NCBI GenBank assembly: GCA_024276595.1
Contig: JAJRWW010000627.1
Coordinates: forward strand, 1 to 13,932
DNA length: 13,932 nt
Direction: 5' to 3'
From: Myxococcota bacterium
Lineage (GTDB): Bacteria; Myxococcota_A; Polyangia; HGW-17; JAJRWW01
Shown: positions 1 to 13,932 of the stretch, in pieces
How positions within the stretch are numbered: position 1 is the stretch's first letter
How the letters are laid out: each line of letters opens with the position of its first letter
The notes under the pieces: model-generated
Told to the model about the DNA's origin: nothing
What the model saw: the letters and a program-made list of their open reading frames with translations, nothing else
The model's database searches: none
Program-made: the position numbers and the translations under genes

Positions 1-104
1 CCGAGTTCCGCGCCGACCACCCCTTCATGTTTCTCATCCGAGACCGGAGGACTGGCGCGATCCTGTTTCTGGGCCGCCTGTCCGATCCGACGAAGCGGCC
101 TTGA
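1..104 (+). CDS. 3' end of a serpin (serine protease inhibitor) gene; partial, with the stop codon TGA at 102-104
   Basis: Frame 3 translates to [33 protein letters not shown]. This matches the conserved serpin C-terminal signature (F-x-A-D-H-P-F-[LM]-F-x-I-R ... G-x-I-L-F-x-G-R-x-x-x-P). The frame is open to the window edge. Confidence 0.6.
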
Positions 105-304
105 CGAAAACGGTTCTTCGGCAGAAGCTGTGGGTAGAGCCATCGCCTCCTCGAATCGTCATGGGGGCGCGAAACCAGGTGCTTGAGAGGGTGTGCCGGG
201 TGGTACACCGGGTTTGAGCCGTTTGCGATCAGGTCAGGTCATGGAGCTCCTCAGCCGGGCTCCTTCGAGCCCCTTGGCCTTGCACATGGGAGACATCTCC
301 TGCC

Positions 305-907
305 ATGGGTGAGCGAACGCAAGAGCCTGCCAGGGAGGATCCCTGGACCATGCTCGGGCTGCGTGCGCTGGCGCTCGCGAGGGGGCTCGTGCAGGCGCCG
401 GACCTGGAGTCGGACCTGGAGCCGGATGTCACGGTCGCCGGGGGCGCGCGGCTGCGAGCCCTGGTCTCTGAGCTGGAGGGTGCCCAGGAACGGGTGCTGG
501 CCGCGCGGCGGGAGGTGGAGCGCCACGAGGCCCGGCTCGATGATGCAGCCGTGCAAGCCGGGGAGACCCTCATGGGCCTGACCAGCGCCGTGGCCGAGCT
601 CACGAGCAGCCGTGAGCGGCTCGTGGGAGGCGGCGACGCCGAAGCTCTGGAGCTGGCGGATATCGACTACCAGATATCCGCCCTGGAGGGACGCGCCGCC
701 GAGATCAGGGCGCGACAGGGCGCCCAGAGCAGGGACATCGAGCTGGAGATGTCCCCGCAGAGGGATCGCCTCGTGGAGGTGGAGCTTGTGCGGCAGGAGG
801 CGACGGAGCGGCTGCTGGAGCTCCTCCATGAGCTGAGACCTGAGCCGTGCCCCAAGGAGCTGGCCGCCGCCCTCGATGAGCTTGCCAGGCTGCGGCGGGG
901 GCTGTAG
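305..907 (+). CDS. hypothetical coiled-coil protein, 200 aa, Ala/Leu/Glu/Arg-rich
   Basis: Third codon positions are strongly G/C in this frame, e.g. ctG gaG tcG gaC ctG gaG ccG. GGGAGA lies about 12 nt upstream of the ATG. The antisense 258-aa ORF at 251-1027 does not show this periodicity. Heptad-like LE/AR content suggests coiled coil. An alternative start at Met16 is possible. Confidence 0.55.
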   Translation: MGERTQEPAREDPWTMLGLRALALARGLVQAPDLESDLEPDVTVAGGARLRALVSELEGAQERVLAARREVERHEARLDDAAVQAGETLMGLTSAVAELTSSRERLVGGGDAEALELADIDYQISALEGRAAEIRARQGAQSRDIELEMSPQRDRLVEVELVRQEATERLLELLHELRPEPCPKELAAALDELARLRRGL

Positions 908-1149
908 CGGCGGGGCAGCGGTGGGGCCGTGAGCGTAACTCCCTCTGGCCATCGGATCTACTCGAAAACACACCTGACGCACCGGAGCCATGCTGCGGGG
1001 CACAGCCTGTGCACAGCGCGGGGCCACGCCGCAGCCGAGCGACAGGCTACCTGGCGACTCGCGAGCGGCGGTAGTCTTCGAGCGCTATCGGGGGGCCGCG
1101 TCCGCGCTCCTTCCGCTTGCCAACTCCCCTCCCTCATACTCGAGCGGTG

Positions 1150-1349
1150 GTCCAACAGTCAGGATGATCCACTTTAGCCGCTCACGACCTCTCTCGCATG
1201 CGCCCATGTGAGTGTCATCGTTCGAAATGACTGAGCTCCAGGGAGACGGTATTGTACCATTGTTCTTGACTTGGGAACTGGGAGTGTCCACGATTTTGGC
1301 GGTCAGTGGTCTATATGTCAGTGGTCTATATGATGGAGGTGCAGTTTCC
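1150..1349 (+). promoter_or_regulatory. AT-richer leader/promoter region upstream of the lipoprotein gene, containing TTGACT (about 1266-1271) and TATAT boxes
   Basis: Local GC falls to about 50% against about 68% overall. TTGACT is a -35-like hexamer and TATAT is -10-like. I did not map a transcription start, so this is only a region call. Confidence 0.3.
1302..1331 (+). repeat. perfect tandem direct repeat, 2 x 15 bp (GTCAGTGGTCTATAT), ending 4 nt before the GGAGG RBS of the lipoprotein gene
   Basis: Read directly from the sequence: gtcagtggtctatat at 1302-1316 and again at 1317-1331. Each unit carries a TATAT, which is -10-like. Confidence 0.9.
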
Positions 1350-2147
1350 ATGAGCAGAACGAAATTGACGAAGTCGAACCGCGGGTTGCGACCGAGCCCC
1401 GGCCGCCTATGGTGGTGGGGGGCTGGTCCTGTTTGGGTCCTGGCCGGCTTGGTGTCCTGTGATGACGGGGGCTTCAAGTCCGTCGTGTCCACCGATGTGA
1501 CCAACGATCAGATCTCGGCGAAGCACTATGCGTATCGGCTCGGAGACGGCCGCATCGAGGCCGTCTCGAGGTTGCGGATCACCTGGGAATGCCCGGAGGA
1601 TGCCGGCTGTTTGCTCAACACACCGTTTCTGGAGCTCGTGGAACCGGATCGGCTGAGCCTTGTCTGCGGTGAGGTGACGGCGCCCTTTGTGCCCGTGATC
1701 AAGGATTCCATCCAACGGGTCTATCTGGCGGAGACAACGACCTGCACCGATGCGACCGAGGTCCGCTTCGTGCTGGAGCGCTCTTTGGGGACCCTCGAGT
1801 TCGTTGCTGAGTTCCCCGAGCCCTTCGAGATCCTCTCCCCGGCGGAGGGAGCGATCTTTTCCAGGGAGGACGGCTTCCAGATGGAGGTCTCCAGAGAGCT
1901 CACCAGCGTGTACATCTGGGGGGAGTGTATCAAGGATTGGAGTCGCATAAGCTGGACCTTGGGGAGCCTGAACGACTTCCCGGCGGGTCCTTTCGAGACC
2001 GCCGAGGGCCACGATGGGGAGACCTGCGAAGTCACCATCCAGGCCTACCGCTCCCGGGACGGGGTGGTGGATCCAGCGGTGGACCCGGAGACGAGCCTCA
2101 TCCAAGCCAGCGAGAAGCGAGTAGTGCACATCACGCTCACGCCCTAG
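1350..2147 (+). CDS. putative lipoprotein, 265 aa, with 6 further Cys residues; function unknown
   Basis: The internal start has GGAGGT at 1335-1340, 9 nt upstream of the ATG. The N-terminus MSRTKLTKSNRGLRPSPGRLWWWGAGPVWVLAGLVSC has a charged n-region, a hydrophobic core and an LVSC lipobox. The 46-codon N-terminal extension from 1212 in the six-frame ORF falls in the AT-rich region and lacks an RBS. GC3 is lower than in the neighbouring genes. Confidence 0.6.
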   Translation: MSRTKLTKSNRGLRPSPGRLWWWGAGPVWVLAGLVSCDDGGFKSVVSTDVTNDQISAKHYAYRLGDGRIEAVSRLRITWECPEDAGCLLNTPFLELVEPDRLSLVCGEVTAPFVPVIKDSIQRVYLAETTTCTDATEVRFVLERSLGTLEFVAEFPEPFEILSPAEGAIFSREDGFQMEVSRELTSVYIWGECIKDWSRISWTLGSLNDFPAGPFETAEGHDGETCEVTIQAYRSRDGVVDPAVDPETSLIQASEKRVVHITLTP

Positions 2148-2220
2148 ATCCCTTGAGGACGAGAATCTGTGGCAAATGAGTCAAGCTTTGGATCAGGCGC
2201 ACGACGCGGGACGAACCAGC

Positions 2221-2280
2221 CGGCGCACGTGCGCTGGCCGGCGACGAGTGTCGCCGTGCTGAGGGGAGGGGGCCCCGCGT
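2221..2280. terminator. cluster of GC-rich palindromes in a convergent intergenic region: GCGCACGTGCGC at 2221-2232, GGCGAC-gagt-GTCGCC at 2238-2253, GGGGCCCC around 2266-2274. These are possible bidirectional terminator hairpins
   Basis: The inverted repeats are read directly. No U-tract follows them, so their role as intrinsic terminators is uncertain. Confidence 0.25.
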
Positions 2281-2425
2281 GCCACGGGTGGTGGCCTGCG
2301 GGGGAAGGGAACCGCAGAGCTCCCCTCTACAGTCAGTCTGGCGAGGGCTCAGCTACGGGGAGAAACACCAACATCGGCGCCCACCCCTGGTCGACACCGC
2401 CTCGTCACTCTGAGGCTCAGCCTCG

Positions 2426-3232
2426 CTAGTACTCGGTCTCCTTGCGAGGCTTGGTCACCGCGTCGATCATGGGATCGTATCCGCGGCGGCGGCGGGGGGA
2501 GTTGAGCTTGCGGCCCTCCAGCACCTTCTGGCGCATCCCGTTGTGAAAAAGCACGATGCAGAAGTTGCCGTAGATGGTGGACTTGTCTACCGCCCACATT
2601 CGGACGTCCTTGGCGCCTATCCACTCCACGTGGTGGAGACGGGGCTGACCGGCGAGGTCCTTTTTGAACACCGGCTGGCCCGCGCCAAAAGCCTTTATTA
2701 GCTTGCCCAGAAACTGCGGGAAGGTGAGCCCCTTGTAGTTCTTGTGGTCCGCGTTGAAGGCGATGAACTGCTTGTACAGCTTTCCGTTGTGAAAGAAGAA
2801 GAAGCGCTGCTGCTCCTTTTCCAAGAAGACGACGATGGACTCCTGGTTTCTGTGCCGAAACTGATCGTCCACGATGGACGAGTCCCAGCCGCTGCGCCTG
2901 CCGGTGAACTTGAAGTAGCTCTTTTTCACCTTCAGGAGCTTCTGCCTGAGCTCCTTGCGGAGCTTGTCCTGCTTGCGAGGTGAGGTCCTGGCCTGCCGGA
3001 TGCGCTTCAGATAGACCTTCCTCAGGTTGGCGGTGAGGAGCTTGATCACCTTGGAGGGGCCCAGGCCCCACTTGTACTTGCCAGTTAGCGCAGCAATGGC
3101 GGCGGCGGCTCGCTTGTTCACCTTTACCTTCTTTGTGACCTTTCGGCGGCGGCGCCGGCGGCGAGCATCGGCGTCCGTGGTCCAGGCCAACAGGAGGATG
3201 GATGTCAGGAGCAATACGGATACGCGTCTCAT
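2426..3232 (-). CDS. secreted, extremely basic (Lys/Arg-rich) protein of 268 aa; mature N-terminus RRRRRRRK; function unknown
   Basis: The internal ATG at 3232 is preceded by GGAGGGA. The N-terminus MRRVSVLLLTSILLLAWTTDADA is a classic Sec signal peptide with an AxA cleavage site. Two internal motifs are similar to each other: FFFFHNGKLYKQF and CIVLFHNGMRQKV. I recognise no family. The 96-aa upstream extension in the six-frame ORF is rejected. Confidence 0.6.
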   Translation of the reverse strand: MRRVSVLLLTSILLLAWTTDADARRRRRRRKVTKKVKVNKRAAAAIAALTGKYKWGLGPSKVIKLLTANLRKVYLKRIRQARTSPRKQDKLRKELRQKLLKVKKSYFKFTGRRSGWDSSIVDDQFRHRNQESIVVFLEKEQQRFFFFHNGKLYKQFIAFNADHKNYKGLTFPQFLGKLIKAFGAGQPVFKKDLAGQPRLHHVEWIGAKDVRMWAVDKSTIYGNFCIVLFHNGMRQKVLEGRKLNSPRRRRGYDPMIDAVTKPRKETEY

Positions 3233-3410
3233 GCTTCCCTCCGTCTGGAAGACGCTGTGATCTTCAGCCGCTGCATAGTAACAGGGCGGCCTTCCGGCCG
3301 CAAATCTTATCCGTGGACAAGCTCGCGCGTACCTGCCAGGGGCTGCCTCCTCGCCAGCGGCCTCGGGGGACGCAGCTATGGGGCTCTGACTTCCCCTTGG
3401 CGGCCAATAT

Positions 3411-4223
3411 TCAACGGCCCCGCGCCACCCGTGTCTTTCGCGCGCGGGGACGGTAGCCACGCCTGGCCACCCCACGCTTGAGATCCAGATAGGGTGTCCG
3501 GGAGTACATGGCCTCCTCACCCGGGCCGCCGTAGTCTATCCAGAAGGTCTTCTTTGCCCGCACGTCCAGGTGCATGTGGAAGCCGTTGGGGTAGTAGCCC
3601 ACGCCCACGTGGGAGTAGTGCCTGAGCAGGTAGTTGCGGATCCGAACGTTGGAGATGGCGTCGAAGTTGAAGTCGATTGCGTGACCTGTCACGTGCTTGC
3701 TGGTCTTGAGCCGGGCCACCACCTTGGGGCGGTTCCCGGAGAAGACCGACACCTGGGGTTGTCCGAAGTGCAGCCACAGGTCGTAGAGAATCACCAGCAG
3801 GCGCCAGTGTATCTTCTGGGCGCGGCCCGTGTGGGAGCAGCGCATGAACCGCGCGAAGCGCCTGAAGGCGGCCGCCCGGAGCTGCCCACGGGAGTCGTAG
3901 AGGCGGATCCTGATGGCCTCCCGGTTGTGCACGTGGTAAAGGGGCATGGAAGGCAGCCGCAGCAAGGCCCTGGCCCCTCTCCTCCCTCTTCTGCTCCGAC
4001 CCTTTCGCCTGGTCGCTCTCCTGGCCCTGCTCGTGATCCTGCGCACCGATCTCAGGCGCCTTCGATTGCGCAGGCGCCTCGCCGGACGCAGGCTCCGGTG
4101 ACCTCCCTCCCTTCGGACCCGCCGCACCTGGCGACCGCCGGGCACCGCCACGGACACGGCGGGCTCAGCCCCCAACAGGAGCAGCAGGCAGGGGAGCAGC
4201 AGGTGCATCTTCGGGGCTCTCAT
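3411..4223 (-). CDS. MepK/YcbK-family peptidoglycan endopeptidase (DUF882, peptidase M15A) with a Sec signal peptide and an Arg-rich region of about 55 aa, 27 of them Arg
   Basis: The ATG at 4223 is preceded by GGAGGA. The signal peptide reads MRAPKMHLLLPCLLLLLGAEPAVSVA. The catalytic region reads LYHVHNREAIRIRLYD...SGNRPKVVARL...KHVTGHAIDFNF...GVGYYPNGFHMHLDVRAKKTFW. This matches the YcbK/DUF882 consensus (HTGE..., SGYRSPxxN, SxHxxGxAxDF, GGVGYYPxSxFVHxDTGxxRxW). Confidence 0.8.
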   Translation of the reverse strand: MRAPKMHLLLPCLLLLLGAEPAVSVAVPGGRQVRRVRREGGHRSLRPARRLRNRRRLRSVRRITSRARRATRRKGRSRRGRRGARALLRLPSMPLYHVHNREAIRIRLYDSRGQLRAAAFRRFARFMRCSHTGRAQKIHWRLLVILYDLWLHFGQPQVSVFSGNRPKVVARLKTSKHVTGHAIDFNFDAISNVRIRNYLLRHYSHVGVGYYPNGFHMHLDVRAKKTFWIDYGGPGEEAMYSRTPYLDLKRGVARRGYRPRARKTRVARGR

Positions 4224-4400
4224 GGTTCCTCCAGGGATCTCCAGATTGGATGGACCACCGGAACCTGTCAATTTTCTCGCCCCCTTTTGCCCATCACGGG
4301 CATTGAACGGGCGGTGAAACTGGGGGCCATCTGTGCTATACAGCCTCTAGCACGTCGGTTTGGCGATGGGCGAAATTACGATCCTGAAGGAGGAATCGAG
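4224..4400. promoter_or_regulatory. divergent promoter region between the M15A peptidase gene (minus strand) and the acidic lipoprotein gene (plus strand)
   Basis: 177 bp of lower GC (ttttctcgcccccttttgcccatcacgggcattgaacg..., gcgaaattacgatcc) are flanked by two oppositely oriented starts. Each start has a GGAGG RBS. Confidence 0.35.
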
Positions 4401-5366
4401 ATGAGAACTAAGCTAGTAGCAGTAATGGCGGCCTTCACCCTGGCCCTCTCACTGGGAGCCGCGGCCGGCTGCAGCGACGACGACGTTGGCGAGATCTGCG
4501 ACAACGGCGTGGACGACGACGGCGACGGCCTCGCGGATTGCGACGACCCCCTCTGCGACATGGACGAGGCCTGCCAGCCCGTCTGTGGCGATGGCGTGGC
4601 CGAGGGTGACGAGGTGTGCGACACCAACGACCTGGCCGGCAACACCTGCGCATCCGAGGGCTTTGACGATGGCGACCTGGCCTGCAACGCCACATGTGAC
4701 GGCTTTGACGACAGCGCCTGCTACGACTACTTTTGCGGCGATGACGCGGCCGAGGGTACAGAGGAATGCGACGGCGTGGACCTGGCGAACACGACCTGCG
4801 AAGACCTCGGCTACCTGGGCGGCGACCTGGCCTGCGACACGGACTGCTTCTTCGACGAGTCCGGCTGCTTCGACACCGTGACCTGCAGCGACGCCAGCTT
4901 CATGGGCACAGGGGGCCAGGCCTTTGGTGGCGACAGCCAGAACGGCAACTACGACTGGTTATACCAGGAGCTGGTGGACCTGGGTGACGGGGCCACCTGG
5001 CTGCTCTCCATCGAGCTGTACGGCGACTTTGTAAATGGCGGAGGCGGAATCACCACGGGCGCACACGACGTCTCCGTGCCCCCCGAGGACAACTACGCCA
5101 CCTGCGCCTACTGCGTGCTCATGCGGCGCTGTGCAGACGCCCAGTGCAGCAACGTGGAGGCGGTCTTCTTCCCCACCGCCGGAACCCTCCAGCTCGATGT
5201 CCTGTCTCAGGCCGGCATGGGCTCGTTTCAGGGCAGCATCTCCGACTTCAACTGGGAGGAGGTCACCATCGACTCGTCCACCTACGAGTCCACCGCCGTG
5301 GTGGGCGGTGACTGCTTCAACCTGACCGCGGCATACACGGTGGACGCCACCGTGGACGCCATGTAG
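4401..5366 (+). CDS. acidic Cys-rich lipoprotein of 321 aa with Myxococcus-type cysteine-rich repeats and a C-terminal beta-rich domain of unknown function
   Basis: GAAGGAGG lies 7 nt upstream of the ATG. The signal peptide MRTKLVAVMAAFTLALSLGAAAGC ends in a candidate lipobox. An Asp-rich CDNGVDDDGDGLADCDDPLC module is followed by tandem repeats: VCGDGVAEGDEVCDTNDLAGNTC...GDLACNATCDGFDDSAC and FCGDDAAEGTEECDGVDLANTTC...GDLACDTDCFFDESGC. About 25% of residues are D or E. The 5' 277-codon extension in the six-frame ORF runs antisense to the peptidase gene and is rejected. Confidence 0.75.
   Translation: MRTKLVAVMAAFTLALSLGAAAGCSDDDVGEICDNGVDDDGDGLADCDDPLCDMDEACQPVCGDGVAEGDEVCDTNDLAGNTCASEGFDDGDLACNATCDGFDDSACYDYFCGDDAAEGTEECDGVDLANTTCEDLGYLGGDLACDTDCFFDESGCFDTVTCSDASFMGTGGQAFGGDSQNGNYDWLYQELVDLGDGATWLLSIELYGDFVNGGGGITTGAHDVSVPPEDNYATCAYCVLMRRCADAQCSNVEAVFFPTAGTLQLDVLSQAGMGSFQGSISDFNWEEVTIDSSTYESTAVVGGDCFNLTAAYTVDATVDAM
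4581..4868 (+). repeat. internal tandem duplication encoding two Cys-rich modules of about 46 aa inside the lipoprotein gene
   Basis: The repeat is visible at protein level: xCGDxxAEGxExCDxxDLAxxTCxxxGxxxGDLACxxxCxFDxSxC appears twice. It is degenerate at DNA level. Confidence 0.7.
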
Positions 5367-5375
5367 CCAGCTCTC

Positions 5376-5401
5376 GGCCGCCGCCGCCTGGCGGCGGCGC
5401 C
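5376..5401. terminator. GC-rich hairpin (GCCGCCGCC ... GGCGGCGGC) between the convergent stop codons at 5364-5366 and 5437-5439; candidate bidirectional terminator
   Basis: The inverted repeat ggccgccgccgcctggcggcggcgcc is read directly. No U-tract follows it. Confidence 0.3.
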
Positions 5402-5436: not shown

Positions 5437-8400
5437 CTACTGTGTGTCCAGCCCCTTGAGGGCGTCCAGCAGCTCACGGAGCTGGTTCAGCTCTCCGAGG
5501 GCCTGCTCGATCATCGCGTCCACGGCGGGATCCACCACGCCGGCCTTCTTCAAGCGCCGGTCGATGGTGCGGAGCGCGTCCACAACCCGGATGTCCATGG
5601 AGGGGGAGAGGGAGCGGAGCTGGCTCCGGATGGTGGCAGGCAGGGAGAAGCTGTGCTTTCCCCCGGGGGGAGAGGGATGGCCTGCCAGCTCTGGCTCCAG
5701 GGACTTGGACGCGAGCTGGGACCGACCCGCAGCCGCCGCAGGAGATGCCGGGGCAGCGCCCGGCGCCTGGGGGGGCGCATGGGGCCGCATGGGGCCGGCC
5801 GCCGGGGGTGGGGAGACCGCGCCCGCGCTGCTCCCTCCACCCCTGCCCGCCTGGGCGTACCGCTCCATGGCGGCCACCATGGCCTGCACCCCCTGGCTGA
5901 GCGCTGCGAGCTGCTCGGTCACCTGCCCGACCGCCTCCGTGTCCGCAGCCGGCCGCCGCGACTCACCCTCCGAGCCTGCGCTCGGGGCCCTCCGGCCAGA
6001 GAGGCTCTCCTCCAGCTTCTCCAGCAAGAGCGCCTGGATCTGGTTGGACTCTGCGGTCTTCTCCCTGTCCGCCTCAACCGCCCTGGAGGCGTCCTGGATC
6101 CGCTGGCTGATGTCGCCCAGCTTCTCCGAGACGAGGCCCAGGGTGCCGGTGACCCTTGTCACCGGGTCGTCCTCGGCGCCCCCCATGGAGCGCTGCCTGC
6201 GGAAGCCCTCCTTGATCTCCTCCCAGCGGGCGGCCTGCTCCTCGGTCATCCGATTCCGCAGCTCGGCCAGCTTCAGAAGGTTCTGCTCCGCGCCGGTGGT
6301 CAGGGACTGGGCCTCGCCCTGGTAGTGGTCGTCCAGCAGGCTCTCCAGCTCGGAGTCGTTCATTACGGGCAGGATCTTCTCCGCCAGCTTGTTCATGTTG
6401 CGATAGCTGCCCTGGAGCTGGAAGCGCGGCTCCGTGCGGTAGGCGTCGTCCTGGGCGGCGGAGTAGATGTACTGCTGGTTGACCGAGAGCAGGACCCGCT
6501 GCACCCGCTGCAGCTTCTCCAGGACGGAGAGCACATCCTTGAGCTCCACCGACGAGTAGGGGTGGCTGAGCTGGTCCGCCTGCACCTCCTCACCGGCGGC
6601 CATGCGCACCAGCTTGTACAGGTCCTCTGGGTCCCGCGTGGTGAGAGGCGACAGCACCGGGTTGGAGGTGAGGGCGTTCTCCATGTACGACAGGGCGAAT
6701 GCCTCCTCGCGGCCCTCGAGGATGTCACCCAGGTTGTAGGTGTCGGCGCGGTTGGCCAGCATGTCAGGGATCTGGAACTTCTCCCCCGACTCGGTGTAGG
6801 GGTTGCCAGCCATGCACACAGCGAACTTCTTTCCCCGGAAGTCGTAGGTGCGGGTCTTTCCTTTCCACACCCCCTCGATGCGTCGCTGGGCGTCGCAGAG
6901 GGAGATGAACTTCTGCAGCAGCTCGCTGCTTGTGTGCTGGATGTCGTCGATGTACAGCAGCACGTTGTTGCCCATCTCAAAGGCGAGGTTGATCTTCTCC
7001 ACCTCCTGGCGCGCGGTGGCGTTGGGAGCCTCGGAGGGGTCCAGGGAGAGGACCTGGTGGCCCAGAGCGGGGCCGTTGATCTTCATGAACACCAGCCCAA
7101 GCCTGTTGGCGATGTACTCCATGAGGGTGGTCTTGCCGTAGCCAGGGGGAGAGATGAGCAGCAGCATCCCCATGAGGTCCGTGCGCTTGTTCTTGCCCAG
7201 GGCACCTATCTGCTTGGCCAGGTTGTCGCCGATCAGGGGGAGATACACCTCACTGATGAGCTTGTTGCGCACGAAGGAGCTCATCACCTTTGGCATGTAC
7301 TCCGAGATCCGGAGCGCCTCCCGCTCCCGCTCCAGCAGGTCGTGCCGGAGCTCCCTGAAGCGCTGGAAGGCGACGACTCGCTCCCGGCGGAAGGTGCCCA
7401 GGCGGGTCATGAACTCGTCCAGCCTCAGGTGGAGCGTCCGGTTTACGATGCGTGGATGCTGGCCCAGCAGGCCCTCCACGTCCGCAGAGGTCAGAGCGTG
7501 GCTCACCGAGCGCTGCACCTTGGACTCGGTCAGGATGAGCATCACCGCCTCCCTCACGGCGTGGCGGTTTGCTCTGACAGCCTCGTCGCTGGCGACATCC
7601 ACGAAGGCGCCAAGCCAGGCCTCCGCAAGCTCGAAGCGCTCCTCCACGCTGTCGGCGAGGAGCCGGAGATCGTCTGTGAACCCACGGTCGTTCTTGGTCT
7701 TCCGCAGGTGCTTCATGAAGTCCTTGCGGAGCTGCTCCGCCTCGGCGCTGATGACGAGCTCCACCGGGTCGGACGCCAGCTCCTCTGCCAGGTACTGGCC
7801 GGCGAAGCGGGCCTCCTCCGGGTCCAGATGGATGGACTCGGCCTGGAAGAAAGCGGAGATCGCCTCCGAGAGCTCTCCGTACAGCTCCGCGTGGGCGGCG
7901 CTGGGGGCGAAGGTGTCCCGCAGGCGCGCGAGGGAGCGCGCCCGGCGAGTCCAGCGCTCGGCGCGCTCCCTGTCCTCGTAGTGCGCCCAGAACAGGTTGG
8001 CCGCTGCCCGGGAGGAGGAGGAGAAGCGCAGCAGCCCGGCGGACTGGTACAGGGTGAGCAGCTTCCCGAGGATGAGCGCCGCGTCCGCGTCGTGCAGCCC
8101 TCGTTCATAGCCCTCGTCGTAGGCCTCGCCGGCGTACTGGCGCACGATCTCCAGCAAGTCCGTCTCGGTGGCCGCGGCTGCCCGGAGCTGAGCCAGGCTG
8201 TGGTTGCCCCGCTCCAGCTCGGCGTCCGCCAGGATCTTGGCGGCCAGGTACTCCCCACGGTACACATCGGCGGTCTCGCTCACTAGCTGCTGATCCCACA
8301 GGTCCCGGGTCTGGGCAAACTCAGGGTCGTCGATTCTCTGGTAGAAGTCGGTGCCAGTGAGGTGCAGGTACATCTCACCGTCCCGGGGCACCATGGTGAG

Positions 8401-11040
8401 ATCCAGAGGCTGAGTGTTTACGCTGAAGCTGTGGCGGCCCAGCTTGATGGAGTCGCCACCGTCGGTGAAGATGTCCTCCCTGTCCCGCAGCCCCCTGGCA
8501 GCATCCTGGATGGCCCCCTTCAGCCGGGCCTCCACCTCGTCCGCCTTTACCGAGTCTCCCAGCTCCCGGAGGTCTGAGGAGAGATCCTTGAGCTTTGTGA
8601 CCATGGGGTCGGAGGCAAAGTAGGAGTTGAGCTCGTCCACGTCGGCGAAGGTGGCTGCGCGGCGGCTCACCGTCTGGAGGATTCGCTCGGCGGCCTGCAT
8701 CATGTTCCCGGCGCGGCGCTGGCGCGCGTCCAGGAGCTGCTGCTTCTTGGTGGAGAAGGCCTTGTAGACCTCCTCCCGCTTGGTGGAAAGATCCTCGATG
8801 AACTGGTCGAACTCGGCGTAGCGGCTCTCCAGCTCCTCCAGCGCCATCATGAGGCGCGACAGCTCGGAGTCACACTTGGCAGGGGTGTCCGCCAGACCCA
8901 GGGCGCTGGTGACGTTCTGGGAGAAGACGTTGAACTCGGCACCGAACTCGGCCACCGCCTCCGTGGAGAGCAGCTCCTTGCGACGGTTCTCCAGCAGCGC
9001 CCTGCAGCGGTTCAGGCTCCCGAGCACCTCCGAGATGCCCTCCAGGATCTGCGTGCGCTGGGTAGAGTCCTCGAGCTTCAGCCCCCCGACAACCTCCGTG
9101 AGCATCTGGAGCTGCTCGTTCATGGTCTCCACCCGCTGGCGCAGGGGCTCGGCCTCGGCCACCTTCTCGATGGCCTCGCTGGAGCTCACCAGCTCGGCGA
9201 TCTTTTCGTGGTAGGGAGCCAGGGCATCCTCCCCCAGCAGAAACCTCACGGTGTGGCCGGTGAGCTTTTCGAACTGCTCCACCACCCGGGCCTCCAGGCC
9301 ATCCACCCGGGCGACGTCAACGTGACGGAGATTGCGCAAGGTGATGAGCTGCCCGCGCTGCTTGCGCAGGGCCGCCAGCCCCTCCACGAAGGCGTCCGAG
9401 GTGGTCCAGGAGTCGGGCTTGAGGTCCCTCAGCAGCTCCGCAAGCTGCTTCTCCGCGCGGTCCACCGCCTGACCGGACTGGCGCCGCACCTCCTCCACCT
9501 TCTGGAACTCGTCCACGATGAGGCTGGCGGTGTCCTTTATCTCCTCCAGGGGTTTGCGGAGGTTGCCCACCTCATCTCGATCCAGCCAGTAGTGGTCGTC
9601 GAGCACCCGGGACACGGCAGCCACCAGGTCCTCGTAGATCTGGACCGTGGGCCTCTGCTCCTCCACGGCCCTGCGAATGGAGAGCATGTCCGAGATGCCG
9701 CGCACCAGGTCGGCGTTGCCGATCTTTTCCAGGTATGAGCCCGAGGAAGGGGCCCTGGCGGCAAACTCGTCACTGGTAAAGGGGGTCTGCCAGATCTGCA
9801 TGGGGTGAACCCGCGTGGGCTCGTCGCTCTCGGTGCGGAAGACCACCAGCTTCCCGTCGGGGAACAGACCAAAGCCGTTGCACCTGATCGGGTTCTGCAG
9901 CTCCTTGCGGATCATGTTATAGGGCAGCAGCACCGACCTGCCCTCCATGCGGCTGTGGAAGATGTACAGCACGTCCTCGCCGTTGGGCGAACGGATCATG
10001 CGCATGAACTCCAGGCTCTCGGTGCTCCCTTCGAAGGTCTTGGTCTCTCCCGACTGCAGGTGGTAGCCGCCGGGGAAGATGACCCCGTGGTCCTCGGGGA
10101 GCTGAACGCAGGCTTGACCGATGGCGTCTATGCGCTCGGCCCTCTTGGTGCGGGTGTTAAAGAGCAGGTATCGATAGTGCTCCTCCCGGTAGGGGAGCAC
10201 CTTGAAGAGCACCAGCACCCCAACCCGAGCGTAGAGGATCTCTGCGTCGTCCAGCGACTGGTCCGGGTCCTCCACCGGCTCCCGGTAGACCCCCAGGCCG
10301 TCCTCGGTGTTGTCCTCCACCTTGATGGTGAGGTCGCCGCCCACGGTCTCGATGAACACCTCGTCGTCGATGGAGATGTGGGGGTGACGGCCCGGCACAT
10401 GCTGCTCCCTGGTGGTGGGGACCCACTCGAAGTCGTGGGAGGGGGGGAAGACCTGCTCCCGCTCCCCCCTGTTGTCGATGTAGGTGACCTCGCTGCCATC
10501 GGGGGACACGGCCCACTGGAAGACCCTGATGTCAGAGACGGTGGCGCCGGTCCTGAAGACAGCCAGCAGCTTTTGACCCACGCGCCGGAGCTGCATGAGC
10601 TCGGTGTCCTTGTAGAACCGATACAGCTCGGAGAACTCGCTGATGAACTTGGGCGCCGCCAGGAAGGAGGCATCCACCGCCTCCAGCTTGAACCCATCAT
10701 CGGTCTGCTCGAAGGAGCGAAGAGAGAGCACATCCGAGACGTCAGTCTCCTTCTTCAGGCCCAAAAAGGCGTTGTAGCCAAAAAGCAGCCGGTCTCCCAC
10801 CTCCACGATGTCCCTGGGCACGCAGTTGTTCTCGGTGCGGATGCGCTCGTTGCCAATGATGGCCATCTGGGTGCCACCAAAAACCTTGATTCGCTCGGCG
10901 TTGAGGGCCTGAGCCTTTTCCCCCAGCCCCCTGGCCTGCTGCACCAGGCGGTCCCTGATGATCTCGTAGGTGCCCTGCTCGATGGCAGCGGCGCCCTCCG
11001 TCTCCTCCACGACGCCGGCGGCTTTTTCTTCAGCGGCCAT
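5437..11040 (-). CDS. giant coiled-coil AAA+ ATPase of about 1,867 aa. Layout: N-terminal globular domain (about aa 1-430) unassigned; coiled-coil-rich region (about aa 430-1250); AAA+ module (about aa 1250-1450); Pro/Ala/Gly-rich linker (about aa 1683-1795); conserved C-terminal helix
   Basis: The single 5.6-kb ORF has strong GC3 bias. The ATG at 11040 is preceded by GGGAGAGG; an in-frame GTG at 11043 is an alternative start. The P-loop LLLISPPGYGKTTLMEY is encoded at 7126-7152 and Walker B VLLYIDDIQH at 6943-6960. A downstream segment, AVCMAGNPYTESGEKFQIPDMLANRADTYNL, resembles sensor regions of MoxR/AAA_5 ATPases. No protease, nuclease or vWA motifs are seen. Confidence 0.85.
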   Translation of the reverse strand: MAAEEKAAGVVEETEGAAAIEQGTYEIIRDRLVQQARGLGEKAQALNAERIKVFGGTQMAIIGNERIRTENNCVPRDIVEVGDRLLFGYNAFLGLKKETDVSDVLSLRSFEQTDDGFKLEAVDASFLAAPKFISEFSELYRFYKDTELMQLRRVGQKLLAVFRTGATVSDIRVFQWAVSPDGSEVTYIDNRGEREQVFPPSHDFEWVPTTREQHVPGRHPHISIDDEVFIETVGGDLTIKVEDNTEDGLGVYREPVEDPDQSLDDAEILYARVGVLVLFKVLPYREEHYRYLLFNTRTKRAERIDAIGQACVQLPEDHGVIFPGGYHLQSGETKTFEGSTESLEFMRMIRSPNGEDVLYIFHSRMEGRSVLLPYNMIRKELQNPIRCNGFGLFPDGKLVVFRTESDEPTRVHPMQIWQTPFTSDEFAARAPSSGSYLEKIGNADLVRGISDMLSIRRAVEEQRPTVQIYEDLVAAVSRVLDDHYWLDRDEVGNLRKPLEEIKDTASLIVDEFQKVEEVRRQSGQAVDRAEKQLAELLRDLKPDSWTTSDAFVEGLAALRKQRGQLITLRNLRHVDVARVDGLEARVVEQFEKLTGHTVRFLLGEDALAPYHEKIAELVSSSEAIEKVAEAEPLRQRVETMNEQLQMLTEVVGGLKLEDSTQRTQILEGISEVLGSLNRCRALLENRRKELLSTEAVAEFGAEFNVFSQNVTSALGLADTPAKCDSELSRLMMALEELESRYAEFDQFIEDLSTKREEVYKAFSTKKQQLLDARQRRAGNMMQAAERILQTVSRRAATFADVDELNSYFASDPMVTKLKDLSSDLRELGDSVKADEVEARLKGAIQDAARGLRDREDIFTDGGDSIKLGRHSFSVNTQPLDLTMVPRDGEMYLHLTGTDFYQRIDDPEFAQTRDLWDQQLVSETADVYRGEYLAAKILADAELERGNHSLAQLRAAAATETDLLEIVRQYAGEAYDEGYERGLHDADAALILGKLLTLYQSAGLLRFSSSSRAAANLFWAHYEDRERAERWTRRARSLARLRDTFAPSAAHAELYGELSEAISAFFQAESIHLDPEEARFAGQYLAEELASDPVELVISAEAEQLRKDFMKHLRKTKNDRGFTDDLRLLADSVEERFELAEAWLGAFVDVASDEAVRANRHAVREAVMLILTESKVQRSVSHALTSADVEGLLGQHPRIVNRTLHLRLDEFMTRLGTFRRERVVAFQRFRELRHDLLEREREALRISEYMPKVMSSFVRNKLISEVYLPLIGDNLAKQIGALGKNKRTDLMGMLLLISPPGYGKTTLMEYIANRLGLVFMKINGPALGHQVLSLDPSEAPNATARQEVEKINLAFEMGNNVLLYIDDIQHTSSELLQKFISLCDAQRRIEGVWKGKTRTYDFRGKKFAVCMAGNPYTESGEKFQIPDMLANRADTYNLGDILEGREEAFALSYMENALTSNPVLSPLTTRDPEDLYKLVRMAAGEEVQADQLSHPYSSVELKDVLSVLEKLQRVQRVLLSVNQQYIYSAAQDDAYRTEPRFQLQGSYRNMNKLAEKILPVMNDSELESLLDDHYQGEAQSLTTGAEQNLLKLAELRNRMTEEQAARWEEIKEGFRRQRSMGGAEDDPVTRVTGTLGLVSEKLGDISQRIQDASRAVEADREKTAESNQIQALLLEKLEESLSGRRAPSAGSEGESRRPAADTEAVGQVTEQLAALSQGVQAMVAAMERYAQAGRGGGSSAGAVSPPPAAGPMRPHAPPQAPGAAPASPAAAAGRSQLASKSLEPELAGHPSPPGGKHSFSLPATIRSQLRSLSPSMDIRVVDALRTIDRRLKKAGVVDPAVDAMIEQALGELNQLRELLDALKGLDTQ
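5777..5796 (-). repeat. perfect 10-bp tandem duplication (gcatggggcc x2) inside the low-complexity linker coding region
   Basis: Read directly. It encodes GPMRPHAPP on the minus strand. The unit length is not a multiple of 3. Confidence 0.85.
6693..7293 (-). other. AAA+ ATPase core (Walker A and Walker B) of the giant protein
   Basis: Walker A is the GPPGxGKT-type SPPGYGKTT. Walker B is hhhhDD (LLYIDD), about 60 aa downstream. An MAGNP motif lies about 45 aa after that, as in MoxR/dynein-like AAA_5 domains. Confidence 0.7.
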
Positions 11041-11043
11041 CAC

Positions 11044-11171
11044 CCTCTCCCGTTTCTGGCTGGCTCAAGGTCGCCAGCCCGGGGCAGTTTCTCCTCGACC
11101 AGGGAGCGCCCGATGGGCCGGAGCACTCGGTCGAGTGCGTGGCCGCCACCTGACCTGGTCCTTGCCCTGGT
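11044..11171 (-). promoter_or_regulatory. 128-bp spacer between the flotillin gene and the giant ATPase gene, both on the minus strand; likely co-transcribed, possibly with an internal promoter
   Basis: The two genes share a strand and sit close together. The only RBS is immediately before the ATPase start, and I see no strong hairpin in the spacer. Confidence 0.3.
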
Positions 11172-13346
11172 CTAAAGCTCGGCCTCGTCCACGCCCAGCT
11201 TCTTCGCCTCGGCGAGGAGCGACTGGAGCTTGGACTTGCCGGCATCGTCGGTCTTGAGCATCAGCTTGCCCAGCAGCCCAGAGAGGGTGAGGTTCTGCAG
11301 GTCGGCAGGCGAGATGGCTGAGTTTGAAAGCACCTGCTTGAGGTCCTCGGGCAAGTTGGCGCTCCTGTCCAGGTAGTCCTTGAACGCGGTGGAGGCGGCG
11401 CCGGAGCCCTTGAAGAAGCCGTCCACGCTCTTGCCGAGGGTCACGGAGTTCACGAGCCGCTCGAAGAACAGGTTCTCGCCGCCAACGATGTCGATCTTGG
11501 CGGTCTTGAGGGCCTCGGCCACGATCTCTGCCTGGGAGCGAGCGACCTCCTTGCGGGCCTCGATGCCCTGCAGCTCGATGGCGCGCTCGTTCTCCAGGCG
11601 CAGGCGGTACTCCTCGTGCCCCCGGCTGGCGTCGTCCAGGGCGCCCATGGCCCGGGCCTTCTCCTCCAGTCCGGAGGCCTCCGCCTCCAGCTTCAGTCGG
11701 ATGGCCTCGGCCTCGGCCATGCCCTGCTCCCGGGTGACCACCGCGGTGGAGAGCCCCTTCTCCTTGGAGACGACTGCCTCGGCCATGCCGTGCTTCTCCG
11801 TGGCGCCAGCGTCCACCTCCTTGACCTTGGCCCTGGCCTCCCCCTGCGCCTCGATGCCCCTGGCCTCCGCCTGCATCTTCTCCAGCAAGATCCGCGCCTC
11901 GGCCATGCCCACCTTCTCGATGGCGTCGGCGTCGGCGTTCTTCACGGTGACGGTGGCCAGACCGGCGGCGGCGGCCTCCGCCTGGGTCCCCTCGGCCAGG
12001 CGCATCTTGGCCTGGGCCTCCTTGTCGGAGACCTCGAGCTGTGCGTCGGCGAGCAGGAGCCTCTCCCGGGCGCGGAACTTGGCCGCCTCCTCGGCCGCCT
12101 CGGCCGCCTTGATGTCCTTCACCAGCTTCTCCTGGGCCTGGGCCTCGGCGGTGATGATGGTGGCCTCCTTGCTGCGCTTGGCCTCCTCCACCAGCCGCAA
12201 GGCCTTTATTCGCTCCTCCTCCTCGGCCTGGGTGCGCTCCACCGCCAGACGCTCTCGGATGACGTCGGCGATCTCCTTCTTCTCCCTCTCCACCTCTTTT
12301 TGCTTGGCTATGGTGCCCAGCTCGGTCTCCCGCTCCCTGGCGATGGCCTCCAGGGCCCGGTCCTTCTCTACCCGCTCGTTCTCCACTGCCACGACCCGCT
12401 CGCGGTTCTTCATGGCCACCGCCACCTGGCGGGCCTTGTTCTCCTCGTTGATGGCGATCTCCTCCTCGGTCTTGATGCGCGCCAGCTCTGCCTTGCGCCT
12501 CTCCTCTGCCTGGACCTTCTGGGTCTCTGCCGCCTCTCTGGCGCGCACGACGGCTATCTCCCGAGCCTGCTTCGCCTCGGCGTCCGCCTGCTGCCGCTCC
12601 AGCTCCAAGATGGCCTCTTTGGCCTCCACGTTCTGCTTGGTGATGAGCTTCCGCTCATTGTTCTCAAAGTCGTTGGTGCGAACGTTCTCGGACGCGGTCA
12701 GATCGGTGATCTTCCGGATGCCCTGGGCGTCCAGCACGTTCTTGGGGTCGAGGGACTCCAGGGGGGTCTGCTCCAGGTAGTCGATGGCGGCGTCCTCTAG
12801 CTGGTAGCCGTTGAGGTCCACGCCGATGACCTCGATGATCCGCTTGCGGAAGTCCTCCCGCTTTGTGTAAAGGTCCACGAAGTCGAGCTGCTTGCCCACG
12901 GTCTTGAGGGCCTCTGAGAACTTGGCATTGAAGAGCTCCTCCAGGGCCATCCGATCCGACGCGCGGGCGCAGCCAACCGACTGCGCCACCTGGATGACGT
13001 CATCGGTGGAGCGTCCGACCCGGACATAGAAGGTGACCTTGATGTCCGCCCGGATGTTGTCCTTGCAGATCATCCCATCCTTGCCCCGCCGGTCGATCTC
13101 TATGGTGTTGAGGGAGATGTCCATGATCTCCGCCTTGTTGTACACTGGCCAGACGAAGTGCCCGGTGAAGGCGACCTTCACCTTGCCCCGCGGGCTCGAC
13201 ACGATGAGCACCTTCCCCTGGGGCACCTTGCGATAGAAGCCCGCCAGGAACGTGGGAATGAGCAAGATCAGCGCGAGGATGGCGACCCCAACGATCACTA
13301 GCAGCGACATCAGAGGGCTGAGCCCCATGAGGGCAAAAACAGACAT
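11172..13346 (-). CDS. flotillin-like SPFH/Band 7 membrane protein (YqiK/FloT family), 724 aa. It has an N-terminal TM segment, an SPFH domain, and an EA-rich coiled-coil flotillin region of about 370 aa
   Basis: The ATG at 13346 is preceded by GAAGGAGG. The N-terminus MSVFALMGLSPLMSLLVIVGVAILALILLIPTFLAGFYRKVPQGKVLIVSS...VKVAFTGHFVWPVYNKAEIMDISLNTIEIDR...IRADIKVTFYVRV is a typical flotillin start: hairpin/TM, then SPFH beta-sheet. Long AEAxxA/ERxK repeats follow. I reject the 22-codon upstream extension (MTPPPPRRQRPP...). Confidence 0.9.
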   Translation of the reverse strand: MSVFALMGLSPLMSLLVIVGVAILALILLIPTFLAGFYRKVPQGKVLIVSSPRGKVKVAFTGHFVWPVYNKAEIMDISLNTIEIDRRGKDGMICKDNIRADIKVTFYVRVGRSTDDVIQVAQSVGCARASDRMALEELFNAKFSEALKTVGKQLDFVDLYTKREDFRKRIIEVIGVDLNGYQLEDAAIDYLEQTPLESLDPKNVLDAQGIRKITDLTASENVRTNDFENNERKLITKQNVEAKEAILELERQQADAEAKQAREIAVVRAREAAETQKVQAEERRKAELARIKTEEEIAINEENKARQVAVAMKNRERVVAVENERVEKDRALEAIARERETELGTIAKQKEVEREKKEIADVIRERLAVERTQAEEEERIKALRLVEEAKRSKEATIITAEAQAQEKLVKDIKAAEAAEEAAKFRARERLLLADAQLEVSDKEAQAKMRLAEGTQAEAAAAGLATVTVKNADADAIEKVGMAEARILLEKMQAEARGIEAQGEARAKVKEVDAGATEKHGMAEAVVSKEKGLSTAVVTREQGMAEAEAIRLKLEAEASGLEEKARAMGALDDASRGHEEYRLRLENERAIELQGIEARKEVARSQAEIVAEALKTAKIDIVGGENLFFERLVNSVTLGKSVDGFFKGSGAASTAFKDYLDRSANLPEDLKQVLSNSAISPADLQNLTLSGLLGKLMLKTDDAGKSKLQSLLAEAKKLGVDEAEL

Positions 13347-13504
13347 GTCCCGGACCTCCTTCGTCCCAAGAACCCGTGGGGGTCTTTGTCGTCTGGGCGG
13401 GGGTGGCGTCACGAGGAGCCCGTCCCCTGCTGGGATCTACGCCTCTCCCCGCCCCGCTGTCAAGGCCAAGTAGCTGCGGGGAGAGATCCCTGGCGGGGCC
13501 GAGG

Positions 13505-13720
13505 CTACCAGTCGTCGGGATCCGAGGGCGGGGGGCGCCTCCGAGGGGATCCGTCCACCCCTCCATCGAGAGGCTCAGTGGGAGTGGGGGCGCCGAAGGT
13601 CTCACCCAGGCGCCGGGCACAGGAGTCGCGGAACAGGAGCCACGCCGCCAGCAGCAGCAGCGCCAGGGCCAGGAAGATGTACTGCTGTGCCGAGACGTTG
13701 GGGCGGTGTCTCTGCCCCAT
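13505..13720 (-). CDS. possible small single-pass membrane protein of 72 aa (MGQRHRPNVSAQQYIFLALALLLLAAWLLF...), immediately upstream of the flotillin gene
   Basis: GC3 is high in this frame, at about 85%. One hydrophobic helix is followed by a Pro/Asp-rich tail. The RBS is weak (GCGAGG). The six-frame ORF extends to 13915 but would then overlap the recJ 3' end, so the start at Met66 is preferred. Confidence 0.35.
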   Translation of the reverse strand: MGQRHRPNVSAQQYIFLALALLLLAAWLLFRDSCARRLGETFGAPTPTEPLDGGVDGSPRRRPPPSDPDDW

Positions 13721-13778: not shown

Positions 13779-13932
13779 TCAGCCATCGCTCTTCGAGGGC
13801 GCAATGTCCAGGAGGCGAAGCTGGATGGATGTCTTGCCTCGATAGGTGTTGTGCTCTGGCACGAAGACCAGCCTGAGCGGTGAGTGAAGCGCCGGGGCCC
13901 GGCTGCCCATCCCAAAGCCGATGGCCTCGTGA
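13779..13932 (-). CDS. recJ: 3' end of recJ-like single-stranded-DNA exonuclease (partial; stop codon at 13779-13781)
   Basis: The minus-strand frame gives ...HEAIGFGMGSRAPALHSPLRLVFVPEHNTYRGKTSIQLRLLDIAPSKSDG*. The EHNTYRGKTSIQLRLLDI segment resembles the E. coli RecJ C-terminus (...DINEFRGNRSLQIIIDNI...), which I recall from memory. Confidence 0.5.
   Translation of the reverse strand, partial: HEAIGFGMGSRAPALHSPLRLVFVPEHNTYRGKTSIQLRLLDIAPSKSDG

Follow-up and report, generated by a model that had tools for sequence, protein, structure and literature searches.

Does a bacterial flotillin have an ATP-driven machine of its own? This question is raised by the 13,932-nt contig JAJRWW010000627.1 of a Myxococcota bacterium (~65% G+C), the whole of which was analysed and is called the window below. 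In this window the gene of a flotillin, an SPFH-family protein, is followed on the same strand by the gene of a giant AAA+ ATPase. Bacterial flotillins are widespread and their mechanism is poorly understood, and a dedicated, energy-consuming partner has, to our knowledge, been characterised for none of them. Our data strongly support the two genes as a conserved unit, whose function is most likely ATP-driven remodelling at a flotillin scaffold.

The flotillin and the ATPase as a conserved unit

The two genes and the spacer between them are as follows (coordinates are those of the window; GC3 is the G+C content at third codon positions).

11172..13346, minus strand: YqiK-type flotillin (SPFH) gene, 724 amino acids (aa) and a stop codon (11172-11174), from the open reading frame (ORF), a Band_7 match and an hhalign match to YqiK; GC3 0.92
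11044..11171, minus strand: intergenic spacer of 128 nt, read from the sequence, with GGGAGAGGG immediately 5' of the ATPase start and without a terminator-like site
5437..11040, minus strand: giant AAA+ ATPase gene, 1,867 aa and a stop codon (5437-5439), from the ORF and the Pfam domains DUF3686, DUF7902 and AAA; GC3 0.90

ORF calling places both genes, in the 5' to 3' order flotillin, 128-nt gap and ATPase, exactly where a first-pass annotation of the sequence had put them, and confirms the sizes, the common orientation and the spacing given there. Their translations are identical to database proteins (P0001 for the flotillin and P0121 for the ATPase). The GC3 values show that both ORFs are coding, and the long ORFs on the opposite strand across both genes are shadows by the same comparison. 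The flotillin starts with the ATG at 13346, which has GAAGGAGG 8 nt upstream, and the ATPase with the ATG at 11040 (a GTG lies at 11043).

We scanned one genome per species using an alignment of the ATPase and found matches in at least 594 species; the linkage counts below rest on the 80 best loci among these. The 80 loci belong to Actinomycetota (34), Gammaproteobacteria (22), named Myxococcota (14), "Delta" or unclassified proteobacterial metagenome-assembled genomes (MAGs; 5), Acidobacteriota (3), Planctomycetota (1) and a MAG labelled Clostridia (1). Two of them, L010 and L047, start inside the ATPase gene, hence 78 loci have upstream DNA. In 77 of these 78 a flotillin homologue with 46-63% identity lies directly upstream of the ATPase on the same strand, and in many loci the flotillin match ends only a few to a few tens of nt before the ATPase match starts. 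The exception is a Myxococcales MAG (L028), where the flotillin (1278-3566) lies ~6.3-6.4 kb upstream of the ATPase (9860-15712). The pairing spans at least five phyla, i.e. Myxococcota, Actinomycetota, Gammaproteobacteria, Acidobacteriota and Planctomycetota, and the identities to the window's pair co-vary between flotillin and ATPase (r = 0.72, n = 75 loci). The first-pass annotation had asked whether such ATPases are usually encoded away from flotillins. They are not, and it is for this reason that we regard the linkage as strongly supported.

One locus stands out by its taxonomic label. L002 (CAZQBW010000056.1), from a MAG named 'uncultured Clostridia', encodes a module 58-61% identical to that of the window, closer than most of the Myxococcota. 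It may represent a mis-binned MAG or a recent transfer.

A reduced member of a described operon family

The first-pass annotation took the architecture to be undescribed. The operon has in fact been reported in silico, without a name. Ravi et al. (mSystems 2024, PMC11237479; preprint 2020) described an operon with CesT/Tir-PspA, YqiJ, a band-7/flotillin protein and a beta-propeller/coiled-coil AAA+ protein, with PLD in some cases, in which one of the partners is a YqiJ/YuaF protein with three transmembrane (TM) segments. The same paper describes abbreviated operons of flotillin and YqiJ, joined "in some cases" by the ATPase, as widespread and suggests that they may cooperate with a PspA from another place in the genome, and in its Table S3 the gene order of Dokdonia donghaensis (IS97_2772) is the same as in the window. 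The window is a reduced member of this operon kind, i.e. a dyad without YqiJ; this two-gene form is what is new here.

Clustering of the ORFs in our loci gave a third family, whose members of ~230 aa contain hydrophobic segments and have a beta-rich domain at the C-terminus; in 72 of the 73 informative loci its gene immediately precedes that of the flotillin. The loci without such a gene are six cut by a contig end, L013, where the 752 nt upstream of the flotillin hold no YqiJ-like match, and L028 with its displaced flotillin. The hidden Markov model (HMM) of this family matches E. coli YqiJ (E 8e-10), a Hymenobacter protein annotated DUF1449 (E 1e-41) and the hypothetical gene upstream of the SPFH gene of the plasmid pQBR103 (E 7e-66). 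Comparison with E. coli YqiJ by hhalign gives a probability of 86%, and the NCBIfam scan returned nothing for the family.

No YqiJ/NfeD-like gene was found anywhere in the window by tblastn and profile HMM. Its closest relatives on longer contigs, L081 (flotillin 88% identical) and L082 (ATPase 78% identical), lack YqiJ as well, and their flanking genes differ from those of the window; within this clade only the dyad is conserved. A YqiJ gene hidden beyond the contig end was considered and rejected, as the DNA upstream of the flotillin is occupied by another ORF and recJ, and the two relatives have no YqiJ either. The absence is limited to the window's clade and a few other Myxococcota. Since the Polyangia-type loci L013 and L028 are also without a YqiJ-like gene, YqiJ seems to have been lost more than once within Myxococcota.

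The first-pass annotation had noted that no NfeD is present and that an ATPase takes its place. The first half holds for the window, but the second does not hold for the family. Because YqiJ/DUF1449 precedes the flotillin in nearly all related loci, the ATPase is in general an addition to the YqiJ-YqiK-type pair and not a substitute for the NfeD-like partner.

Larger versions of the operon exist in other lineages. A PspA/IM30 gene (E 2e-49) extends it upstream in 16 of the 80 loci, all gammaproteobacterial, a YjfI/DUF2170 (CesT-like) gene is present in 13, and a PLDc_2 protein is encoded downstream in 10. We recovered the full version in loci of Pseudomonas, Lysobacter, pQBR103 and Hymenobacter. 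In the window, the larger ORFs scanned gave neither a DUF2170/CesT-like nor a PLD domain.

The ATPase is also present on 13 plasmid records. The flotillin-ATPase pairing occurs on plasmids of Bacteroidota and Pseudomonas, and Deinococcus plasmid records match the ATPase. The gene order on a Hymenobacter plasmid is Tir-type chaperone, PspA, DUF1449, flotillin and ATPase. On pQBR103, a megaplasmid of Pseudomonas fluorescens SBW25 (L084, NC_009444.1 85458-104317), the module is fused to a yjf-like PspA/polyamine operon in the order PspA, rhomboid, DUF2491, DUF350, DUF1190, glutathionylspermidine-synthase-like, YqiJ-like, SPFH and "DNA repair ATPase", with an MvaT/MvaU gene just downstream. This plasmid in SBW25 offers a tractable experimental system for the module. 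Two Proteus mirabilis records listed as plasmids in PLSDB (H3 and H4; NZ_OL790812.1 and NZ_OL790811.1) are chromosome-sized at ~4.08 Mb and carry an ATPase with 49% identity.

Domain content of the ATPase

The features of the ATPase are listed from its N-terminus to its C-terminus.

9589..10926, minus strand: DUF3686 domain, aa 40-485, a predicted beta-propeller-like module closed by a helical bundle
8974..9228, minus strand: DUF7902, aa 606-690, within the long helical middle region (Pfam, E 1e-30)
8338..8460, minus strand: conserved non-coiled block GGDSIKLGRH...TGTDFYQ, aa 862-902, a cluster of invariant columns in 20 homologues
6742..7194, minus strand: single AAA+ module (Pfam AAA, 36.1 bits, AAA_22 and AAA_5; PDB sequence matches)
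7126-7152, minus strand: Walker A SPPGYGKTT, aa 1298-1306, invariant in 20 homologues
6943-6960, minus strand: Walker B variant LLYIDD, aa 1362-1367, invariant in 20 homologues
6799-6813, minus strand: putative sensor-1 MAGNP, aa 1411-1415, invariant in 20 homologues
6742-6756, minus strand: putative Arg finger ANRAD, with an invariant R, assigned by position
5596..5841, minus strand: Gly/Pro/Ala-rich low-complexity linker, ~aa 1735-1816, poorly conserved in the alignment
5440..5595, minus strand: conserved C-terminal helical tail, aa 1817-1868, from the alignment of 20 homologues

The large N-terminal domain, which the first-pass annotation could not assign, is the Pfam domain PF12458 (DUF3686, "ATPase involved in DNA repair"), matched by aa 40-485 with E 3e-209, and NCBI names the family 'DNA repair ATPase'. 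An alignment-based model predicts a beta-propeller-like domain with a helical bundle; a single-sequence AlphaFold2 model of aa 2-516 was discarded (pLDDT, the predicted local distance difference test, of 33). A search of 1.84 billion representative proteins with the DUF3686 profile gave 958 matches, 380 of them at E <= 1e-30. The full-length proteins have 1,590-2,036 aa with the domain N-terminal in nearly all, which suggests that DUF3686 proteins have essentially one architecture. The mean column identity of the ATPase across phyla is 62% in the alignment of 20 homologues.

The middle ~700 aa are helix-prone by composition, in partial agreement with the ~800 aa of coiled coil annotated at first. 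However this region is interrupted by conserved non-coiled blocks, namely aa 606-690, aa 862-902 and aa 975-989, the last of which reads YDEGYERGLHDADAA.

The AAA module at ~aa 1285-1435 matches PF00004 with 36.1 bits (cutoff 21.2, E 1.1e-8) and AAA_5 with 25.6 bits (E 1.3e-5). Its residues PPGYGKTT (aa 1299-1306) agree with the Walker A pattern GxxGxGK[ST], and the Walker A region aligns to p97, NSF, Rix7, Rpt3 and RuvB at E ~1e-6 among PDB sequences. Neither MoxR nor dynein occurs among the best 60 of 85 PDB sequence matches. The module had been called MoxR/dynein-like; judging by these scores it best resembles the classic AAA type (p97/NSF/Rpt), i.e. the remodeller/unfoldase clade. The motifs SPPGYGKTT, LLYIDD and MAGNP are all present as annotated, and so are the Pro/Ala-rich stretch and the conserved C-terminal helix. 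The sensor-1-like Asn in MAGNP and the Arg in ANRAD are invariant and at the expected spacing, assigned by position and not by structure.

Toward the C-terminus, aa 1750-1815 contain 20% Pro and 18% Ala, and in the tail L1848, D1852, L1857 and L1861 (P0121 numbering) are nearly invariant in the 20 homologues. A Pfam scan of the ATPase detected no protease domain, TM segment, MIT domain or NSF-N domain. The sole PDB match of the whole-length ATPase profile, a designed coiled coil, was set aside as uninformative, since it arises through the low-complexity C-terminus.

Domain content of the flotillin

Two features were located in the N-terminal part of the flotillin.

13236..13331, minus strand: putative N-terminal hydrophobic membrane anchor, aa 6-37, LMGLSPLMSLLVIVGVAILALILLIPTFLAGF, read from the translation
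12795..13229, minus strand: SPFH/Band_7 domain, aa 40-184 (Pfam PF01145, 51.4 bits against a cutoff of 23.6)

The putative anchor is an uncharged hydrophobic stretch of 32 residues. The Band_7 match is obtained when the first 253 aa are scanned alone (E 1.8e-13, 51.4 bits, gathering score 23.6), and the full-length protein has no Pfam match even at E <= 1. This miss is probably an artefact of the HMMER composition filter caused by the long Ala/Glu-rich region (21% Ala and 19% Glu in aa 250-600), because only four of 20 close homologues match Band_7 when scanned whole and the other 16 are missed. Domain-based surveys will therefore under-count this flotillin subfamily.

The family profile of the flotillin aligns to E. 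coli YqiK by hhalign with a probability of 99.7% (E 8.9e-27, 401 columns, ~30% identity). Its homologues are named "flotillin family protein" or YqiK by several sources, and they share with it the Ala/Glu-rich repeat and a conserved C-terminal block. By these matches the protein is classified as a YqiK-type flotillin. Its predicted anchor (aa 6-37) and SPFH domain (aa 40-184) are followed by a long stretch of helical repeats, after which comes the conserved C-terminal block. The Flot C-terminal region (PF15975) was not matched by Pfam in the window flotillin or in the close homologues scanned. Likewise the flotillin had no match among PDB sequences, either as a single sequence or as a profile, and an NCBIfam scan gave nothing for its N-terminus.

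Proposed function and alternative explanations

We consider it reasonably probable that the dyad is a co-inherited and probably co-transcribed module, representing the minimal form of the YqiJ/DUF1449-flotillin-ATPase operon family, and that it encodes an ATP-driven remodeller which acts at a flotillin scaffold in envelope maintenance. Assembly into an SPFH cup or cage is known for HflK/C, QmcA-YbbJ and flotillin-1/2. By analogy the flotillin would be anchored by its N-terminal hydrophobic segment and assemble as such a cup or cage on the cytoplasmic face of the inner membrane, with the ATPase as its dedicated ATP-driven partner. The beta-propeller-like module and the helical bundle could recognise the scaffold or its clients, and the long helical region could be a spacer or an oligomerisation element. 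The mechanical work, be it assembly, disassembly or the extraction of clients, would then fall to a single AAA+ ring of the classic type. The flexible Pro/Ala linker with its conserved terminal helix might serve as a docking element, and docking might take place through the propeller or through the terminal helix. The physiological role would likely be membrane maintenance or repair under envelope stress. We infer the physical interaction of the two proteins, and in the same way the identity of the substrate, the direction of the remodelling and the role in stress.

The same functional inference has been made for the operon by Ravi et al. (PMC11237479). The presence of PspA, a CesT/Tir-like chaperone, YqiJ and PLD in the wider operons also agrees with the membrane-stress framing of the first-pass annotation. 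Since the ATPase family is highly conserved, is present in at least 594 species and is almost never found apart from a flotillin, it is a strong candidate for an ATP-driven component of a membrane-microdomain or envelope-stress machinery. That the module also exists as a two-gene form, with neither YqiJ nor PspA, suggests that flotillin and ATPase together make up its functional core.

Several observations weigh against remodelling at a flotillin scaffold. The propeller assignment comes from a model with low Foldseek TM-scores (0.2-0.27). In Walker B an Asp stands where Glu is usual (hhhhDD and not hhhhDE, the invariant D-D being followed by I-Q-H), which makes the catalytic rate and mechanism of the ATPase uncertain. 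The alignment with the PDB matches shows no evident aromatic pore-loop residue downstream of Walker A, so the threading of substrates is not assured. The stress-network context is extrapolated from other lineages, as the clade of the window is without YqiJ and a Pfam scan of the larger window ORFs gave no PspA. Our literature searches on DUF3686 and on flotillin with 'DNA repair ATPase' gave no papers, and no experimental work on any member was found.

We also speculate that the DUF3686 AAA+ proteins in general are dedicated assembly/disassembly motors for SPFH cages, and perhaps also for PspA/ESCRT-III polymers, as a bacterial counterpart of Vps4/NSF that works without NfeD/YqiJ in the clade of the window. 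This proposal is tentative and we hold it to be doubtful. If it were true, it would fill the Vps4/NSF role that reviews call missing in bacteria.

Alternatively the flotillin could be only a membrane platform, and the substrates of the ATPase could be PspA/ESCRT-III-like polymers encoded elsewhere, as for Vps4, or misfolded membrane proteins. PspA and the CesT-like chaperone do share the operon in its gammaproteobacterial and Bacteroidota versions, and the suggestion of Ravi et al. that abbreviated operons work with a distant PspA points in this direction. A 2025 review describes the Band-7 partners of PspA as being of undetermined role and a Vps4-like regulator of PspA/ESCRT-III as seemingly absent from bacteria, where none is known. 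However it is the flotillin that accompanies the ATPase invariably, while PspA occurs in only 16 of the 80 loci. PspA was detected neither among the larger window ORFs scanned nor among the genes called in L081 and L082, and the Pfam scan of the ATPase gave no MIT-like domain or known PspA-binding element. We regard this explanation as unlikely. A still more distant proposal follows from the database names, by which the protein would be a DNA-repair ATPase adjoining a flotillin by chance. The text of Pfam PF12458 and the NCBI product name say so, the P-loop has weak matches to RuvB, and the 3' end of recJ lies upstream in the window (13782-13931). But the similarity to RuvB extends over only ~45 residues at Walker A (22.5 bits, curated cutoff 282), L081 and L082 do not share the recJ neighbour, and the universal partners of the ATPase are membrane proteins. 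No DNA-binding, nuclease or helicase domain was detected by Pfam and no paper was found to support the name. This explanation is extremely improbable in our view, and the name 'DNA repair ATPase' is probably misleading.

The pair could also be a conflict or anti-phage module that acts by abortive infection. An infection would be sensed at the membrane and answered by damage to membranes or nucleic acids, in some lineages with PLD as an effector. Such a role would suit the patchy distribution across distant phyla at 45-63% identity, the flanking genes that differ among the window, L081 and L082, and the PLD-family gene downstream in 10 loci. The presence of the module on megaplasmids such as pQBR103 is consistent with horizontal transfer. 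In PADLOC-DB 2.0 the ATPase has a weak match to LmuB (E 4e-5, 21 bits), but this low-scoring, coiled-coil-like best match covers the helical region only, and the flotillin has no match there. Furthermore the module has no match in 50,697 phage records, and for a conflict system its conservation is very high, with a mean column identity of 62-64% across phyla. The genes that recur beside it belong to envelope stress (PspA, CesT-like, YqiJ and polyamine genes) and not to defence, and the ORFs scanned in the window gave no domain of a defence type. A defence role is thus disfavoured, and we judge it quite improbable.

Transcription signals and flanking genes

The neighbourhood of the dyad in the window contains the following candidate genes.

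13782-13931, minus strand: 3' end of a recJ-like gene running off the contig (RecJ_OB, E 5e-7)
13505-13719, minus strand: ORF of 71 aa between the flotillin and recJ, containing the hydrophobic stretch QQYIFLALALLLLAAWLLF
3411-4271, minus strand: ORF with Peptidase_M15/DUF882 matches (E 1e-10), GC3 0.83
3570-5366, plus strand: 598-aa ORF without a Pfam match, GC3 0.74, ending convergently 70 nt from the ATPase stop

A terminator scan found none between the flotillin and the ATPase, and the terminator count of the region is at chance level. A GC-rich hairpin 3' of the ATPase stop was considered as a terminator and rejected, as it folds no better than shuffled sequence (z = -0.04). The consensus-based promoter scan of the window called no promoter. 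A perfect TTGACA lies at 13458-13463 on the minus strand (element 13435-13463), ~110 nt 5' of the flotillin ATG, and is followed 17-18 nt downstream by a weak -10-like hexamer; the scan did not call it as a promoter.

Between the flotillin start and the contig end lie 586 nt with the 71-aa hydrophobic ORF and the recJ 3' end, and recJ as an upstream neighbour is particular to the window when compared with L081 and L082. The 71-aa ORF is unlike the YqiJ family, and it may not be a gene because its GC3 of 0.73 and its G+C content at second codon positions of 0.83 are atypical. On the other side of the dyad, the ORFs at 3411-4271 and 3570-5366 overlap by 700 nt on opposite strands; the plus-strand ORF probably has a later true start or is spurious. 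The candidate ORFs of this flank (1-5400) have GC3 values of 0.74-0.83 against 0.90-0.92 for the module genes, a contrast that could reflect high expression or a different history.

Comparison with known systems

Flotillin operons with an NfeD-type partner are B. subtilis yuaF-floT and E. coli yqiJ-yqiK (DUF1449/NfeD-like and flotillin). The flotillin of the window is homologous to YqiK, and the gene upstream of the flotillin in the loci related to the window belongs to the YqiJ family. In E. coli K-12 no ATPase follows yqiK, its place being taken by sibD/ibsD, whereas the window has the ATPase and lacks YqiJ. SPFH cages that enclose an AAA+ machine are known from HflK/C-FtsH and from prohibitin with the m-AAA protease. 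Like these, the window combines an SPFH scaffold with an AAA+ protein of the classic clade, the kinship being limited to the AAA core. The ATPase of the window has no detected protease domain or TM segment and carries instead a propeller-like module and a ~700-aa helical spacer, so that it would be a soluble or peripheral giant, unlike the membrane-embedded proteases FtsH and m-AAA.

The disassembly motors Vps4 (for ESCRT-III) and NSF (for SNAREs) share with the window a classic-type AAA+ module, and its ATPase family is linked genetically to membrane-shaping scaffolds, in some lineages including PspA, an ESCRT-III homologue. The ATPase has a single AAA module and other accessory domains, without an MIT or NSF-N domain, and any resemblance to these motors would be functional. 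In the S. aureus FloA-NfeD system, according to the part of PMC13086221 that cites Ukleja et al. 2024, the flotillin is an ATP-independent stabiliser of unfolded proteins under stress. There a flotillin and its operon partner act in membrane stress proteostasis, with a short FloA and, as far as that account goes, no ATPase, and the likeness to the window is one of analogy. The P. aeruginosa SPFH survey itself (PMC13086221) reports no ATPase-linked flotillin.

The closest system is the operon of Ravi et al., which was described by comparative genomics only. The abbreviated form in that paper keeps YqiJ, while the window has the dyad alone, and the two share the flotillin architecture, the architecture of the ATPase encoded directly downstream and the gene order.

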